Assembly: GCA_044450345.1 (NCBI GenBank)
Contig: JBIOIY010000048.1
Span: 1-23,466, forward strand
Source of the DNA: Thermodesulfovibrionales bacterium
Lineage (GTDB): Bacteria > Nitrospirota > Thermodesulfovibrionia > Thermodesulfovibrionales > UBA6898
Direction of reading: 5' to 3'
DNA: 23,466 nt
The notes beneath the pieces are model-generated. The model saw nothing but the letters and a program-made list of their open reading frames with translations. It made no database searches and was not told where the DNA came from. This document shows, one piece after another, positions 1,729 through 9,817 of the stretch. Position numbers and translations under genes: made by a program. Numbering within the stretch: position 1 is the first letter of the stretch; the number at the start of each line of letters is the position of its first letter.

Positions 1729-2725
1729 ACTTCACCATTCCCTTGATCCCGGGTGTTGTATGGACACCCCCGTCCTTGTCTATGATCACTGCGTCGACCC
1801 CGGCCTCTCTGACAAGCTTCATGCCCTTTTCAGGTCCTGAGACGAATACTGCCGTAGAAAACCCGTCTGCAAATACACCGCTGTCGCTTATCACAGTCAC
1901 GCTCCTGCACTGACCGGCGGGATAGCCTGTTTTTGGATCCAGTATGTGATGGTATCGCATGCCGTCTTCAATGAAATATCTTTCGTAATCACCCGATGTC
2001 GATATCGCTTTGTTGGTGAGACTGGCCTTTGCGATCAGCTCGTCGGCCTCGCTCTGCTGCCGCGGGTTCTTGATCCCGATGTTCCACAATGTCCCGTCGG
2101 GTTTTAGACCGAACGCCCTTATATCTCCTGCTGCCGCAACAATCCCGGCGCCGATACCGTTTTGCTTGAGATTCGCCAATGCCAGGTCCGCCGCGTATCC
2201 CTTCGCAATACCGCCGAGGTCCATCAGCATGCCCTTTCTGCTGAGAAATACAGTAGATTTATCACGGTCAACAATTATGTCCCTGTAATTTACGAGGGAA
2301 AGTCTTTTCTTGATAGCTGAATCCGCCGGCCTTATCTTTTTAAAGAAGTCCCACATATTTATTTCAGGTCCTATTGTCGGATCAAAGGCGCCGTTGGATT
2401 TTTCCGAGATATAGACCGCCCTTTCTATCACCCTCAGGGTGTCCGGAGAGACCTTTACCGGAGTTGTCCCTGCGTTCCTGTTTATCGCGGAGAGTTCGCT
2501 TTTGCCGGAAAAAAAATTGATCTTGTCGCCGAACTGTTCGATGACCGAAAATGCCTTATCGATAGCCTTGTTCGCTTGTTCGTCCGACCCCGCAACGACC
2601 GTTACCGTCACAAGGGTATCCATAAGGGGCTTTGTTTTTTTGTACATTGAGAGTCTGCCCTTGCCGCAGGACAGGGGGAGGGCGAGCATGAAAATAAAAA
2701 AAAGGAGAAGGACCTTTGTTTTCAT
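1712..2725 (-). CDS. apbE: FAD:protein FMN transferase ApbE (lipoprotein)
   Basis: Lipobox LPLSC; motifs [48 protein letters not shown]. Confidence 0.96.
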
Positions 2726-5250
2726 GAGGGCGTACCCACTAACCGTCCCCGGGAGAGCTTTTCCTTCAGGAATCTCCCTGTGTAGGATGCCGTGTTGTCC
2801 GCTATCTCTTCGGGAGTTCCTTCTGCGACGAGACGTCCCCCCTCTTCTCCGCCTTCCGGTCCAAGATCGATTAAGTAGTCGGCCGATTTTATAATATCGA
2901 GGTTATGTTCTATCACGACCACCGTGTTGCCCTGGTCGACGAGCATATTCAGGACGTCGAGCAGCCTCTGGATGTCTACGAAATGGAGGCCGGTTGTCGG
3001 CTCGTCGAAGATATAGAGGGTCCTGCCCGACGATTTCCTGCCGAGTTCACGCGAAAGCCTTATGCGCTGCGCTTCTCCGCCGGACAGTGTTGTGGCAGGT
3101 TGTCCCAATTGGAGATACCCGAGGCCTATCTCCTCAAGGACCTCGAGCCGCCTTCGGATATGGGGGATGTTTTCGAAAAACCGGAGCGCCTCCGATACGG
3201 TCATATCGAGGACATCGGCAATGTTCTTGTCCTTATAGGTGATATCGAGCGTCTCGGCATTGTACCTCCGCCCTTTACACTTGTCGCATACCACGTAGAC
3301 ATTCGGCAGAAAATGCATCTCGACCTTGATCAGGCCGTTTCCTTTGCAGGATTCGCACCGGCCGCCCGAAACATTGAAACTGAACCTCGAGGTCTTATAG
3401 CCCCTCACCCTCGATTCGGGAAGCAGGGCGAAAAGGTCCCTGATGAAGGAGAAGAACCCTGTATATGTCGCGGGGTTGGAACGGGGCGTCCGTCCTATAG
3501 GCGCCTGGTCGACGCTTACGACGCGGTCGATGAGGTCCAGTCCGGTGATCTTCTCATGTCGTCCCGGCGGGAGCAGTTCCAGTCCCGTTGAAAATTTTTT
3601 TCCGGCCGCCCGGTAAAGGATATCGAAGATCAGCGTGCTTTTCCCGGAGCCTGACACCCCGGTGACGCAGGTAAAGAGCCCCAGGGGGATATCAGCGTCG
3701 AGGTCCCTGAGATTATGTTCCGACGCGCCCCGTATTCCTATAAAGCCGTCAGGCGTTCTTCTCCTTGCCGGTATTTCTATCGACAGGGCCCCGCTGATAT
3801 ACCGGCCGGTCAGCGACCTCTCATCTTTCTCTATCTGTGCCGGCGTTCCCGCCGCAACGACCCATCCTCCCCTGACGCCCGCGCCCGGCCCCATGTCTAT
3901 AATATAGTCGGCCCACCTGATCGTCTCTTCGTCATGCTCGACTATGATGATCGTATTGCCTGCGTCCCTTATCGAAGAAAGGCTGTCGAGGAGTCTTGTG
4001 CAGTCCCTCGGGTGGAGTCCGATGCTCGGTTCGTCGAGCACGTACAGGACACCCGTAAGGGAGGAGCCCATCTGGGTGGCAAGCCTGATCCTCTGCGCCT
4101 CTCCTCCGGAAAGGGAGAGTGACGGCCTGTCGAGCGTGAGATATCCGAGACCGACCTTTACGAGAAAGGAGAGCCTGTCGTTGACTTCTTTGAGGATGCG
4201 CGAGGCTATTATGCGCTCCCTCTCGGTCAATTTCAGCCTTTCGAGGAAGGAGAGCGCTTCATTGACCGACATCCTGCTGAGCTCGCCGATGTGAATTTCC
4301 CCGAACTTCACGCTCAGCGCCTCGCGTCTCAACCTGAAGCCCTTGCAGGCACGGCAAAAGCGCTGCCCGCCGGGTTCAAGACTGTCTTCGGATATGTCCC
4401 TGAAGCCGAGGCCGTCGCATGTCGGGCATGCACCCGCCTTGCTGTTGAATGAGAAGAACCTCGGCGATATCTCCGGATAACTTATCCCGCATTTCTGGCA
4501 TGCAGTCGTCGTTGAGAACAGGATGTCCTTATTGTCCTTGAGCAGGTTTGCCACCACGGTGTCCGAATACTTGAAAGCGGTATCGACCGCCTCCTTCAAC
4601 TGACGTTCGATGCCGCCCCTGATGATGAGTCTGTCGATGACTATCTCTATCGTATGGCGTTTTTTCTTTTCGAGGATTATCTCCTGGGTAAGGTCCGCCA
4701 TTTCATTGTCGATCCTCGCCCTGACGAACCCCTCATTCCTCATCTCCTGGAGTTCCTTCCTGTAATTGCCTTTCCTGTCCTTGACGATCGGGGCGAGGAC
4801 CTGGATCCTTGTGCCCTCCGGCAGGGCAAGGATCCCCTGCATGACGTCCCCGGCTTCCTGCGTGGAGATCTCGGACCCGCAGTTATAGCAAAAGGCGGTC
4901 CCCAGTCTCGTATAAAGTACGCGCAGATAATCGTATATCTCCGTGATCGTGCCGAGCGTCGAGCGGGGGCTCCTGCTAACCGTCTTCTGGTCTATCGCGA
5001 TCGAAGGCGAAAGACCTTCGATAAAATCGACGTCGGGTTTCTGGAGCTGTTCGAGGAACTGCCGCGAATATGCCGAGAGGCTTTCGACGTAGCGCCTCTG
5101 GCCTTCCGCGTAAATCGTGTCTATGGCGAGGGAGGATTTTCCGGAGCCCGACGGGCCGGTGATTACGGTGACCGCCTGCCTCGGTATCTTCAGGTCGATG
5201 TTCTTGAGGTTGTGTTCCCTCGCGCCCTTTATGTTGATGTATTTCTGCAT
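2722..5250 (-). CDS. uvrA: Excinuclease ABC subunit A (short form, 842 aa)
   Basis: [33 protein letters not shown], two LSGGEAQR signatures, second Walker [10 protein letters not shown] and Zn fingers. Start set at MQKYINIKG (5250). Confidence 0.97.
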
Positions 5251-5363
5251 GCCTTGTCTTTTACTATAACCGAATATATTCGCATAAGTTAAGGGAACCC
5301 ATGCAATTGTCGGGTGGCGGGTTAGGTGCACTTTTACCGTGAGCTCGTGTAAAATGTAATCAT

Positions 5364-6056
5364 ATGAAGAAAATAGTCTTATTGGTATTCATTCTCCTGG
5401 CAGCAAGCGCCGTCTCGTATGCGCAGCCTGTGATACGTTTCGAAAAAGTGGAAGACGATCTCGGGACGATAACCCAGAAAGAGGACAGGGTCGAGCATGT
5501 CTTCGAATTCGAGAACCGGGGCGACATGGACCTTCTGATAGAGAAGCTGGTCCCCTCCTGAGGCTGCACCGCAGCGATGGCTAGTTCGAGCCGTCTCAAG
5601 CCGGGAGAAAGAGGGATGATAAAACTATCGGTGGACATCAGGGGGAAACTCGGGGCCATGTACAAGACTGTCCAGGTCCACACAAACGATCCCCTCACGC
5701 CTCAAGTTACACTCGCGGTCAGTATGGGCATAAAGGACCTCGCCCATATGAAGAAGTATTCCGCATCAGAGATATTCAACGGGACCTGCAAGAGTTGTCA
5801 TGTGCTGCAGGGCAAGGGAAAGCAGAGCTTTGACCTCTTTGTCGCCGACTGCATCATGTGCCACGCCGCGGGTAAGATCGCCTCTGCCGCGCGCGATTTG
5901 CAGCAGAAGTCCGAAGAGCGCATAGAAAGGGCGATCAGAGAGGGGTTAGACAAGACATCGATGCCGGGATGGGATTCGAGACACGGCGGACCCCTCGGGG
6001 AGGAAGAGATCAGGAGTCTTGTCGATTACCTCAGGCCGGCTGCCGGGAACAGATAA
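5364..6056 (+). CDS. Probable secreted selenoprotein: signal peptide + DUF1573-like domain (S-U-G-C-T) + diheme cytochrome c
   Basis: ORFs 5364-5561 and 5577-6056 are in the same frame, separated only by TGA (5559-5561) followed by GGC TGC ACC GCA GCG. Readthrough gives KLVPS-U-GCTAA, matching the DUF1573 SCGCT motif. The C-terminal part has CKSCH, CIMCH and SMPGW. 230 aa in total. Confidence 0.82.
5559..5598 (+). promoter_or_regulatory. Putative bacterial SECIS element
   Basis: Stem GATGGCT (5576-5582) / AGCCGTC (5589-5595) with loop AGUUCG, G at loop position 2, and the loop separated from the UGA by 21 nt. The UGA can pair with UCA at 5596-5598. Confidence 0.65.
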
Positions 6057-6064
6057 TTCATAAT

Positions 6065-6925
6065 ATGAGCGCGATTTTTCAGAAAATAACCCTTTATCTC
6101 AGGATGATAAAATTTTCGCATTCGATCTTCGCGCTTCCGTTCGCCTTCACGTCTGCCCTGATCGCGGCGTCCGGGGTCCCCTTGCCAAGGCAGATATTCT
6201 GGATAGTCGTGGCGATGGTCGGGGCGAGGTCGGGTGCGATGGGTCTGAACAGGATAATCGACAGGGGGATCGATGCCGCAAATCCACGCACCGCCGGAAG
6301 GGAACTGCCAAGAGGGGCGATAGGCGCGGCAGAGACTGTTTTATTCGTAGTCGTCTCTTTCGGCTTTATGGTACTCGCCGCATATATGCTTAATCCTCTT
6401 TGTCTGAGACTGTCGCCTGTTGCGATAGCCGTCCTTTTTATGTATTCATACACCAAGAGGTTTACATGGGCGTCACATTTTGTCCTCGGCCTTGCGATAT
6501 CCGCCTCTCCGCTTGGGGCGTGGATGGCGGTGAAGGGGACCTTTGATCCTGCAATCATACCGCTTGCCTTAGCCGTTATATTCTGGCTTGCCGGTTTCGA
6601 CGTGCTCTATGCGCTCCAGGACCTCGACTTCGACAGAAGTCACGGGCTCTACTCGGTTCCCAAAAGGTTCGGTGTGAAGAAGTCGCTCTATCTTTCGAGG
6701 TCGCTCCACGCGGCCAGTTTTTTCCTCCTTGTCTCGAACGGCCTTATGTTCAGTCTCGGCGCTTTTTACTGGACCGGCATGCTCGTCACTGCAGGACTAT
6801 TTATCTACGAACACTCACTCATAAAGGAGAATGACCTCAGCAAACTGGACATGGCCTTTTTCAACATGAACGGCTATATCAGCATGACGGTCTTCCTCTT
6901 TACGCTGATGGACTTTCTCGTATGA
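6065..6925 (+). CDS. ubiA: UbiA-family prenyltransferase (MqnP-like, menaquinone futalosine pathway)
   Basis: MIKFSHSIFALPFA, NRIIDRGIDAANPRT, YSYTKRFT, AGFDVLYALQD, AFFNMNG. Start set at MSAIFQK (6065). Confidence 0.93.
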   Translation: MSAIFQKITLYLRMIKFSHSIFALPFAFTSALIAASGVPLPRQIFWIVVAMVGARSGAMGLNRIIDRGIDAANPRTAGRELPRGAIGAAETVLFVVVSFGFMVLAAYMLNPLCLRLSPVAIAVLFMYSYTKRFTWASHFVLGLAISASPLGAWMAVKGTFDPAIIPLALAVIFWLAGFDVLYALQDLDFDRSHGLYSVPKRFGVKKSLYLSRSLHAASFFLLVSNGLMFSLGAFYWTGMLVTAGLFIYEHSLIKENDLSKLDMAFFNMNGYISMTVFLFTLMDFLV

Positions 6926-7527
6926 AAAGGTATGTCCTCGGAATAACCGGGGCGACCGGCCCTGCCGTCGGACTGCGTGTTCTGAAGGAGCTTTCGAGGA
7001 CTGCCGAAGTCCACGTGATCATCTCCCGTCAGTCTTTTTCCATCATCCTTGAGGAGACCGGTGCGGATCTGTCGGACGAAACCGCTGCGACGGTTGAGAA
7101 GAGGCTCAGGAAGTTTGCTGCATCGAAGAATATTTATTATCATGACGAAGGTGATTTCGAGGCGCCCGTGGCGAGCGGTTCGTTTAAGACCGACGGGATG
7201 TTCGTTGTGCCGTGCTCGATGAAGAGCCTCTCAGGGATTGCTAACGGCTATGCGAACAGTCTCATCGAACGTGCTGCAGACGTAACGATCAAAGAGGGAA
7301 GGGCGCTGCTCCTTGCGCCGAGGGAGATGCCCTTCAGCGCCATCCATCTCGAAAATATGCTGAAGCTGGCCAGGCTGGGCGTAAAGATCGCCCCTCCGGT
7401 GATGGGTTTTTATCACGGCCCGAAGAGCCTGGACGATATGGTCGATTTCGTAGCCGGAAAGATCCTCGATGCGATGGGAGTAGAACACGAGATCTTCAGA
7501 AGATGGGGGACAAAGAAAAAGAAGTAG
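6922..7527 (+). CDS. ubiX: Flavin prenyltransferase UbiX
   Basis: GITGATG, APVASGS, PCSMKSL, RAADVTIKE, PREMP, FYHGP; ATGA overlap with ubiA. Confidence 0.95.
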   Translation: MKRYVLGITGATGPAVGLRVLKELSRTAEVHVIISRQSFSIILEETGADLSDETAATVEKRLRKFAASKNIYYHDEGDFEAPVASGSFKTDGMFVVPCSMKSLSGIANGYANSLIERAADVTIKEGRALLLAPREMPFSAIHLENMLKLARLGVKIAPPVMGFYHGPKSLDDMVDFVAGKILDAMGVEHEIFRRWGTKKKK

Positions 7528-7789: not shown

Positions 7790-9817
7790 TTAAGGAATCA
7801 CAAAAACTGTTATCCAATGGTAATAGCTCATCAGACTCCCTGGCGGAGTTACTAATATATGGACGGTATATGTCCCTGACGGCAATATAGAAATTGGCAG
7901 AGTGCGGAAGAGGGCCTCGCCCACAGGCCCGGTCGTATTCTGCTTCCAGGGCATAGCTCCTGGAGGAGGTGTCCCTGCCGAGAGTGCCTGGATTACAGTA
8001 TTGATGGAGAACGACTGAAAGGTTCGGTCCGGCTTTAAATTTTTGATAGTCGATGGGTCTGCCGAAGAAGCATATGCCAGGTAAATATCCACATTACCAG
8101 TAAATGGCAGGAACCACGCTTCGAAATTGAGAAGACCGGTGGTTAAATCTCCCACTGCAAAAGGCATGGCATCTCCAGGATTCGGGCGGAGGAGAGGATC
8201 GATACTCTGAGCATAGGGATGGCTTTCACGATCAGTAGGCACAAACATCACCGCATGTTCGACAGAGCCTATATCCACCCCGGCGCCCACAGGCCGCTTT
8301 ACTCCTCTTTGGTCCGTGGCAGGTGCGCCGTTGCTGTCGCCCGTGTCAATGGCGGGGCTTCCCGGAAGCAGATCATAGGTCTGCGTATATCCGCCGTTAT
8401 TCTCAAACGGCCCAAGAAGAGGGTCTGTGTTGTTAAGGTCGCCCGGGGCATTCAGAGCACAGGTAGCGTCGCTCGATATGTTATGCCCCTGAGAGGTGAC
8501 GGGACCCAGGCAATTTCCTCCCGAAGGACTATTAGCGACGATTGTATTTTTCAGCGTCGTAACAGGGTTCGTGTTGCTGCCTTTGTTGTTCAGGACACCA
8601 CCACCATTGGGTGAGGAGTTGTCGCTGATTGTTGCGTTAAGAATGCTTAGGCTGCCGTTATTGTTGAAAACACCTCCACCTATTGTGCCTGCGGTGTTCC
8701 CGCTGACAGTGCCATTTGTTACCGTCATGATGCCGGTATAGTGAAAGATCCCGCCGCCGACCACCGCACTGTTACCACTGAAGGTTACGTTGTTCATATT
8801 TACAGTGCCATTGAAGTTGTTGATGCCGCCGCCGTTATTGGCGGCACTGTTACCACTGATGGTAATATCTGATAGTGTCAGCGTGGCAATAGTTGAGCCG
8901 CCTGGGGTTGAACTGCAGGTGGTGGGACCAACAAAAATGCCACCGGCATCACCCGCTGACGTGTTGCCGGAAATTATGCCCGAACGCTTGTCGAGGCTAC
9001 CGCCATTGGAAATACCTCCACCAGCGCTTGTAGTGGGCGTTGTCACGCTATTATTAGTGATATTGGCGCCATCAATGCTTGTGGAGGAACCCTGCGCTGC
9101 GCAAATTCCGCCACCTTCGTGTCGTGCGCTGTTACCATTGACTGTCCCCCCAAACATATTCAAAACACCCTCGTTCCAAATACCACCGCCAGAAAATGCT
9201 GTGTTTCCAGAAATCGTGCAATCATAGCAGGTTACACTGCTCGGGAGATCGATATAAAGACCGCCTCCGCCACCCAGGGTACTATTGCCAGAGATATTGC
9301 AATTCGCCATCGTCAAGGAGCTGTCGAGAACTACTATTCCGCCGCCACTGTTGTTTAGACAGTTGACATTGGTTAGTGTAAGGTCGCAGCTAGAGCAGAG
9401 AATACCGGCTGTTCGCGCATTTTCTATGCTAAGATCGGAGATGAAAACTCTAGGGCGCGGTTTCCCACTAATCCCACTAACGCTAAAACCTGTTGTACCA
9501 GGAGGACCATTTATCTGAAGAGAATAAGATTCCGGACCGGAGATTGTTAAGTCCTTGTCAGTAATGGGGATTAAGCCAGTCAAATTGATAGGACCTTTGA
9601 CACTGGGATCAAAGATGATAGTGTCACCGGAATTCGCTTTACCCACCGCATCTCGAAGCGAGCCAAGGCCGCTGTCATTTGAATTCGTGACAATGAGGGT
9701 GGCGGCCTGCGATTCTGACACGATGCCTATCCCCACCGATATTAGTGTTAATGCTACCACACAAAGATATAGTCTTCTCCGGAACCCGTTTTGTTTGACT
9801 ACTCGCACACTTGCCAT
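7790..9817 (-). CDS. Secreted/surface parallel beta-helix repeat protein with choice-of-anchor Q region and an unknown C-terminal domain
   Basis: Signal peptide; VTNSNDSGLGSLRDAV; repeated ISGN(S/T)A..GGGI units; LGPFENNGGYTQTYDLLPGSPAIDTG...TDQRGVKRP...DIGSVE. Confidence 0.88.
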   Translation of the reverse strand: MASVRVVKQNGFRRRLYLCVVALTLISVGIGIVSESQAATLIVTNSNDSGLGSLRDAVGKANSGDTIIFDPSVKGPINLTGLIPITDKDLTISGPESYSLQINGPPGTTGFSVSGISGKPRPRVFISDLSIENARTAGILCSSCDLTLTNVNCLNNSGGGIVVLDSSLTMANCNISGNSTLGGGGGLYIDLPSSVTCYDCTISGNTAFSGGGIWNEGVLNMFGGTVNGNSARHEGGGICAAQGSSTSIDGANITNNSVTTPTTSAGGGISNGGSLDKRSGIISGNTSAGDAGGIFVGPTTCSSTPGGSTIATLTLSDITISGNSAANNGGGINNFNGTVNMNNVTFSGNSAVVGGGIFHYTGIMTVTNGTVSGNTAGTIGGGVFNNNGSLSILNATISDNSSPNGGGVLNNKGSNTNPVTTLKNTIVANSPSGGNCLGPVTSQGHNISSDATCALNAPGDLNNTDPLLGPFENNGGYTQTYDLLPGSPAIDTGDSNGAPATDQRGVKRPVGAGVDIGSVEHAVMFVPTDRESHPYAQSIDPLLRPNPGDAMPFAVGDLTTGLLNFEAWFLPFTGNVDIYLAYASSADPSTIKNLKPDRTFQSFSINTVIQALSAGTPPPGAMPWKQNTTGPVGEALFRTLPISILPSGTYTVHILVTPPGSLMSYYHWITVFVIP

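Follow-up and report, generated by a model that had tools for sequence, protein, structure and literature searches.

Two groups of described selenoproteins come closest to the gene reported here. OS_HP2 is a selenocysteine (Sec, U)-containing DUF1573 protein with a UGC motif that was predicted in 2007 in the symbionts of Olavius algarvensis, and the accessible parts of two later accounts tabulate it again (PMC1976440; PMC9312934; PMC13188914). MccSep, or ExtKL (GSU2937-2936), of Geobacter sulfurreducens is, according to the available text of its report, a cytochrome c selenoprotein with five hemes that acts as a polysulfide reductase; its Sec, which this reaction requires, lies on a loop of an immunoglobulin (Ig)-like domain alongside a heme with His/Cys ligation, and the family is described there as common in Thermodesulfovibrionia (PMC13510729). 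We analysed a stretch of 23,466 nt from a Thermodesulfovibrionales bacterium (contig JBIOIY010000048.1 of assembly GCA_044450345.1; hereafter the window), in which a gene at 5364-6056 on the forward (+) strand almost certainly encodes a genuine Sec-containing DUF1573-diheme protein.

The window protein shares with OS_HP2 the DUF1573 domain, Sec at the same position of the U-G-C motif and predicted export from the cytoplasm, but is fused to a diheme cytochrome c, a fusion that goes unmentioned in the accessible text of the three papers on OS_HP2 (PMC1976440; PMC9312934; PMC13188914). Full-text literature searches on DUF1573 and on diheme cytochrome c selenoproteins brought up no description of a heme-fused Sec-DUF1573 form, and the representative accessions given in the reviews may include the fusion. 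An earlier note, made from the letters of the window alone, had allowed that Sec-containing DUF1573 proteins might already be on record, and this is so, OS_HP2 having been tabulated since 2007 (PMC1976440, as far as its accessible text goes). Sec-DUF1573 is therefore already known, and what sets the present gene apart is that it is joined to a diheme cytochrome c. The interest which that note saw in the locus is lessened, as the selenoprotein family was known before and the heme-fused architecture is common in its cysteine (Cys) form.

Gene and protein architecture

From an ATG at 5364 a first open reading frame (ORF) of 65 codons leads to a TGA at 5559-5561; past it the frame is unchanged (GGC TGC ACC) and continues to a TAA at 6054-6056 (features are on the + strand unless stated otherwise). 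With TGA taken as Sec, 5364..6056 is a complete selenoprotein gene of 230 codons plus the TAA stop, and the readthrough product of 230 residues contains the motif P-S-U66-G-C68-T. The Sec66 codon thus occupies the first position of an S-U-G-C-T motif, corresponding to the first Cys in the S-C-G-C-T motif of DUF1573, and a TGC at 5565-5567 encodes Cys68, the thiol that partners Sec66 in the U-G-C centre. Cys68 is invariant among the Cys forms (alignment A3) and nearly so in alignment A2. The two same-frame ORFs parted only by a TGA at the first Cys of an SCGCT-type motif, from which the earlier note had set out, were re-derived together with the motif itself. Relatives align over the whole length of the gene at 42-75% identity.

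Residues 1-20 (5364..5423) form a putative signal peptide, as the earlier note had proposed for the joined protein; this was judged by eye, with cleavage predicted after SYA and small residues at -3 and -1 in a pattern that is kept across the alignment of relatives. A DUF1573 domain with a PapD-like Ig fold (Pfam PF07610) occupies residues 24-115 (5433..5708) and scores 75.4 bits against a cut-off of 26.1, in a match that spans the TGA. The C-terminal part contains heme motif 1, C142-K-S-C-H146 (5787..5801), which is invariant in A2 and A3, and heme motif 2, C163-I-M-C-H167 (5850..5864), which by Pfam and both alignments lies inside a class-I cytochrome c domain (Cytochrome_CBB3, PF13442; residues 157-223, 41.2 bits against a cut-off of 27). 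His128 (5745..5747), nearly invariant in A2, is a candidate distal ligand of heme 1, and the Met of S-M200-P-G-W (5958..5972) is the probable distal ligand of heme 2, with M200, P201 and G202 invariant in A2. The two CxxCH motifs and the SMPGW motif reported earlier for the joined protein were thus all located.

The second ORF that is called at this locus starts at an ATG at 5577 (M72), has 159 codons and, in keeping with what had been claimed for the downstream half, carries no signal peptide. A cytochrome c that lacks a signal peptide is unable to acquire its heme. Three matches to the cytochrome c assembly family PF01578 lie above the cut-off in the genome of this organism, and we consider that 5364-6056 probably encodes a single exported, periplasmic protein of about 210 mature residues. 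Standard gene callers do split the gene as anticipated: public protein sets hold only a truncated C-terminal piece, and the 25 closest public protein clusters are 132-165 amino acids (aa) long and cover 57-69% of the query.

An AlphaFold2 model built on a 31-row alignment (mean predicted local distance difference test score, pLDDT, 86; predicted template modelling score 0.67) places a helix at residues 2-17, within the putative signal peptide, a beta-sandwich at residues 24-124 with pLDDT of about 90-98, and then a helical cytochrome-like part. In the model U66-G-C68 forms a turn between the strands at 57-64 and 69-73. The nearest solved folds retrieved by Foldseek were Ig domains of the PapD/ASH type, with 2qsv, a Porphyromonas protein of unknown function, at the top (E = 5e-9), and these matches were of no functional help. 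A sequence search of the PDB returned weak cytochrome matches and 2qsv only.

Decoding of the in-frame UGA

A six-frame search of 61 genomes (that of this organism and 60 relatives) gave matches in 40, from which 31 full-length homologues of 212-233 aa were extracted. The aligned column holds TGA in 27 of these (S-U-G-C-[T/A/S]) and Cys in two (L084 and L085, reading SCGCV and SCGCT); the remaining two have lost both residues and read T-S-G-N-T and T-A-G-N-T, with all else retained. Conserved or invariant residues flank the TGA on both sides in the alignment (F47, N51, G53, L57 and I59 upstream, G67 and G84 downstream), so that homologues with TGA or Cys at codon 66 and conservation of both flanks, for which the earlier note had advised a search, do exist (27 and two among 31). 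When one genome per species was scanned with the aid of a profile, 452 stretches matched; the best 80 of these loci, which partly overlap the set of 31, comprise 43 with U, 35 with C and two with neither, and two CxxCH motifs are present in all 80. The TGA is therefore not peculiar to this assembly. Homologues with Cys (SCGCT or SCGCV) are uninterrupted ORFs.

Contigs from four runs, belonging to four studies, cover 5559-5561 and show no alternative letter there, although one of these runs may be the source sample and would then not be independent support. Relative to the window these contigs differ at 21 other positions within the gene, of which 13, by hand count, are third positions of codons, and one of the covering contigs, which spans 5410-5645, comes from a metatranscriptome. 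A sequencing error, named earlier as a possible cause of the TGA, is contradicted by its retention in 43 of the best 80 loci and in the contigs of the four runs.

Three further observations concern the use of TGA. In run X6, a 151-nt contig of another organism matches the window over only 34 nt, 5559-5592, that is, the UGA and most of the hairpin described below, and its flanks are unlike the window. In L054-L058 and other relatives, many orthologues also use TGA as the true stop codon, giving the same triplet two meanings within about 500 nt. L092 (genome G050), a distant DUF1573 protein, has its TGA within P-A-U-R-R-C-T and is thus UxxC rather than UxC.

The UGA is followed by a candidate selenocysteine insertion sequence (SECIS), the hairpin GAUGGCU-AGUUCG-AGCCGUC at 5576..5595 (+), with a 7-bp stem (5576-5582 paired with 5589-5595) and a loop at 5583-5588. 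Its stem begins 14 nt past the A of the UGA and a G stands at loop position 2 (5584); the geometric criteria for SECIS elements are those of the bSECISearch literature. Folded alone the hairpin reaches -9.1 kcal/mol, and the single-sequence fold of 5556-5625 is unexceptional against shuffled sequences (z = -1.38). An alignment of the SECIS from 35 Sec-type homologues (27 long and eight short; L092, with its U-R-R-C layout, was omitted) has 95.5% paired cells, a value that falls to 11-45% if one side of the stem is shifted against the other by 1-3 columns. Compensatory changes occur at four of the seven stem pairs, and the 27 double-change cells compare with a shuffled mean of 8.1 and were matched in none of 500 shuffles. 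The RNAalifold consensus of the homologues contains this hairpin and no other structure. It is because of this covariation across 35 homologues, and not because of the fold of the single sequence, that we regard the hairpin as beyond chance, and the earlier report of a SECIS-like hairpin with G at loop position 2 holds in this stronger form, with covariation in four of seven pairs. The hairpin codes for a peptide, M-A-S-S-x-[RH]-L, of which the M-A-S-S part is missing in Cys forms, including P0060 and P0092, which the tree places inside the Sec group. This loss is what a release from RNA constraint would look like.

The genome (3.19 Mb in 86 contigs, 91% complete) encodes the whole set of Sec genes for which a check had been suggested. 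Adjacent selA and selB genes on contig 20 and a selD gene score above their curated cut-offs, and a tRNA-Sec was found by aragorn (tRNA-SeC, anticodon tca). SelB and tRNA-Sec would decode the UGA at 5559-5561 as Sec, directed by the hairpin at 5576-5595. The selD gene (contig 28: 7518-8441, - strand) itself has an in-frame TGA, in C-A-G-U-A-A-K, which makes selenophosphate synthetase a selenoprotein in this organism; the hairpin of selD is unlike that at 5576-5595 in shape. In-frame TGA codons were also seen in an exported DsbA-like gene (F-Q-U-P-H-C; contig 2: 183397-183867, - strand) and in an exported DsbC/G-like gene (P-E-U-P-Y-C; contig 3: 185769-185963, - strand). The periplasmic thiol-redox set of the organism appears to be largely selenium-based.

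The DUF1573-diheme family and the gene neighbourhood

A profile search of 1.84 billion representative sequences gave 43,277 matches at E <= 0.001, many of which involve just one of the two domains; as read from the table of results, about 45 of the best 150 align at full length in one stretch. All 37 full-length representatives that were fetched have two CxxCH motifs, and 36 have a CxC motif (35 CGC, one CDC). Family statistics were taken from 137 tree rows, representing 116 distinct fusion proteins. Each of the 116 has exactly two CxxCH motifs, spaced 21 residues apart in 111 and 22 in five; a His lies 4-30 residues ahead of the first CxxCH in 114, and 113 have an M-[PA]-x motif downstream of the second. 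By record title the Cys forms belong to Acidobacteriota, Bacteroidota, Ignavibacteriae, Vampirovibrionales and Obscuribacterales/Melainabacteria, with one record from Gammaproteobacteria and two from Nitrospirae, so that Cys forms of the fusion occur in at least six groups besides Nitrospirota. All Sec forms seen are titled Nitrospirae, Nitrospirota or Thermodesulfovibrionales (one of them Candidatus Sulfobium) or simply 'Bacterium'. The heme-fused DUF1573 proteins are a widespread, uncharacterised family of their own.

In a FastTree tree with midpoint root, built without eight rows whose local alignment extended across an upstream stop, all 62 Sec rows fall into one group of 69, together with two Cys rows and five rows that have lost the motif. 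This Sec group sits among Cys forms with a node support of only 80, and in view of this support we make no claim as to the direction of change between Cys and Sec. The motif-less paralogues group in one clade (support 100) within a Sec clade. One of them is encoded by the present organism, reads A-A-A-G-N-T in place of the Sec/Cys motif, keeps both CxxCH motifs and is split over two contig ends (contig 26 from 38888; contig 78 at about 8125-8331); the same type, likewise nested in the Sec clade, occurs in relatives (L064, L083 and P0059). Variant architectures include three DUF1573 copies with the cytochrome, a second cytochrome domain and, in P0075, a DsbA-like domain with CPHC fused to the C-terminus of the DUF1573-diheme protein. 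Short Sec-DUF1573 genes of 131-140 aa (L078-L082), with the same SECIS and without the cytochrome part, stand at the same uvrA/UbiA/UbiX locus in other genomes, and the heme domain has therefore been gained or lost at that locus.

In the window the selenoprotein gene is followed by an MqnP/UbiA-like prenyltransferase (6065-6925, +), which starts 8 nt past its stop codon, and by a UbiX flavin prenyltransferase (6922-7527, +), which overlaps the prenyltransferase ORF; both were assigned by NCBIfam. The three genes are probably co-transcribed. No terminator-like site was found between the gene and 6410, and the counts from the promoter and terminator scan are at the level of shuffled sequence. 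The order selenoprotein-UbiA-UbiX recurs at 20 loci of relatives, some of which are duplicate records; as it is shared among kin of the same family, it says little about function. The uvrA gene (2722-5331, - strand) is divergent from the selenoprotein gene. Its listed start is a GTG at 5331, whereas the conserved part of UvrA starts about 27 codons further in, at an ATG at 5250, which is more likely to be the true start and would leave an intergenic region of about 113 nt. Further along the window, 7790-9817 on the - strand holds an ORF of 675 aa that matches a single family, the choice-of-anchor Q domain (NF041518, 86.9 bits).

The context of the fusion was also examined at 36 distant loci with flanks of 1.5 kb. 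A DsbA-like gene lies directly upstream at two of these (L139 and L140), on the same strand in L140; in L139 the DsbA-like (CPHC) gene (887-1504) overlaps the Cys-form fusion gene (1501-2178) by 4 nt. A complex prediction for the L139 Cys-form fusion, with its two hemes, and this DsbA-like neighbour scored 0.00, which speaks neither for nor against binding. At two other loci (L157 and L162) an ORF with an HMA metal-binding domain immediately precedes the fusion gene in the same orientation.

Possible functions and comparison with known systems

We propose that the protein is an exported, Sec-decoded DUF1573-diheme electron relay, and put the probability of this overall explanation at roughly 60%. 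A residue of a conserved CxC at which Sec and Cys replace each other is usually redox-active. The U-G-C centre may cycle between a selenol/thiol and a selenenylsulfide, a two-electron couple, and the two electrons may then be passed singly to the two hemes and on to a periplasmic acceptor. Heme 1 would be ligated by His146 and His128, and heme 2 by His167 and Met200. The protein would on this account be a thiol (or sulfur-compound):cytochrome c oxidoreductase, in which Sec would make the attacking residue more reactive than Cys. The U/CxC motif is always accompanied by exactly two hemes at a fixed spacing (116/116), which supports a redox relay, and a thiol:cytochrome c relay fits because a DsbA-like protein is fused or adjacent in three cases and because the periplasmic thiol-redox set is Sec-based. 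The step at the heart of this scheme, exchange of electrons between the U-G-C centre and the hemes of the same polypeptide, is put forward tentatively, with slightly more doubt than confidence.

Several findings weigh against this overall explanation. An Rfam scan of 5300-6200 gave no SECIS match at E <= 10, and the best NCBIfam match of the protein, NF041425 (OS_HP2 family (seleno)protein), reaches 64.9 bits against a cut-off of 100 (59.9 bits when the model was run on the genome); 12 relatives score 46-85 bits, and none reaches the cut-off. The organism encodes a VKOR-thioredoxin fusion, a standard disulfide-generating system, and a DsbB-like role for the window protein is therefore not needed; a search for DsbB in this genome (completeness 91%) found none. 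The motif-less paralogues keep their hemes without Sec or Cys, so the heme part must be useful without the centre. At 32 of the 36 distant loci the neighbours are lineage-specific and have nothing in common, and a search of the full-text literature found no functional study of any DUF1573 protein.

An alternative is that the protein works in the manner of MccSep, with a catalytic heme: heme 1 would have His/Cys ligation, with Cys68 on its distal side, and the neighbouring Sec66 would attack a chalcogen substrate at this heme, so that the protein would be a minimal reductase or oxidase of polysulfide, thiosulfate or selenite and not a disulfide relay. The available text on MccSep supplies the precedent of a Sec carried by an Ig-like domain close to a c-heme, and the Sec of the window protein is likewise on an Ig-like domain joined to c-hemes; in addition, the Sec forms carry titles from Nitrospirota/Thermodesulfovibrionales or simply 'Bacterium', and MccSep is common in Thermodesulfovibrionia (PMC13510729). 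However, the protein shows no similarity to the MccSep/ExtKL model NF040886 at E <= 0.1, it has two hemes where MccSep has five, and its domains come in the opposite order. Distal ligands are already at hand in His128 and Met200, with equivalents in 114/116 and 113/116 fusions, respectively. Moreover, Cys forms also occur in Vampirovibrionales, Obscuribacterales and Bacteroidota, groups that are not known to respire sulfur. We regard this mechanism as unlikely.

Another possibility is that the CxC or UxC motif binds a soft metal such as Cu(I) and that the hemes set the redox state of the centre or of the metal, which would serve delivery of metal to, or its removal from, the envelope. The HMA-domain ORFs in L157 and L162 would fit such a role, but a metal gene is present at only two of the 36 context loci, nothing related to copper lies near the gene in the window, and no fused metal-binding domain was found among the proteins scanned or fetched; metal handling seems distinctly improbable. 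It is very improbable that the locus yields two products or is decaying, with an exported peptide of 65 residues and a cytoplasmic or inactive remnant of 159 codons. Gene callers do give exactly that split, and the short genes at the same locus (L078-L082) show that Sec-DUF1573 can occur without the cytochrome, but the DUF1573 domain spans the TGA, a cytochrome c made without a signal peptide could not receive heme, and the TGA, the hairpin and both flanks are kept down to 42% identity. A sequencing or assembly error at 5559-5561 found no support and can be dismissed, given the TGA in 43 of the best 80 loci and in contigs of four runs, one possibly from the source sample.

The window protein can be compared with several known systems. 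The Cys-type DUF1573-diheme proteins are homologous to it along their entire length and have SCGCT, a pair of CxxCH motifs spaced by 21-22 residues, and M-P-G-[FWY]; they differ in having Cys for Sec and in lacking M-A-S-S, and some carry an extra DUF1573, cytochrome or DsbA-like domain. Disulfide-generating relays that rely on a CxC shuttle, or on heme or a quinone as acceptor, are exemplified by the C-G-C tail of Erv2, by DsbB and by VKOR. By analogy, the window protein would resemble these in linking a two-electron dithiol/disulfide couple to an electron acceptor, although it has another fold and is without a membrane domain, flavin or quinone site. Sec in place of the first Cys, the constant pair of hemes and the occasional DsbA-like partner point to redox work of the CxC motif and suggest assays. 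As the gene is mis-split and falls below the OS_HP2 cut-off used in NCBI naming, counts of the selenoproteome of Thermodesulfovibrionales are likely to miss it.

The likeness to MccSep lies in the combination of Sec on an Ig-like domain with covalent c-hemes, in the predicted periplasmic location, in the frequent occurrence in Thermodesulfovibrionia and in the splitting of the gene at UGA by gene callers; the genome itself holds no match to MccSep above the cut-off. MccSep, as described in the accessible text of its report, has five hemes, a C-terminal Ig-like domain and the motif D-G-U-P, whereas the window protein has two hemes, an N-terminal Ig-like domain and S-U-G-C (PMC13510729). Perhaps, and we consider this rather doubtful, the DUF1573-diheme proteins are a second, independently evolved class of enzymes with Se or S on an Ig-like domain by a c-heme, a minimal two-heme, two-electron periplasmic catalyst that would oxidise or reduce thiol or chalcogen substrates directly, with the cytochrome c pool as redox partner. 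If so, a function would for the first time be assigned to the large C-G-C family of DUF1573 proteins. With MccSep (2026) as the first, the window protein would give this bacterial class another design that unites Sec with c-heme.

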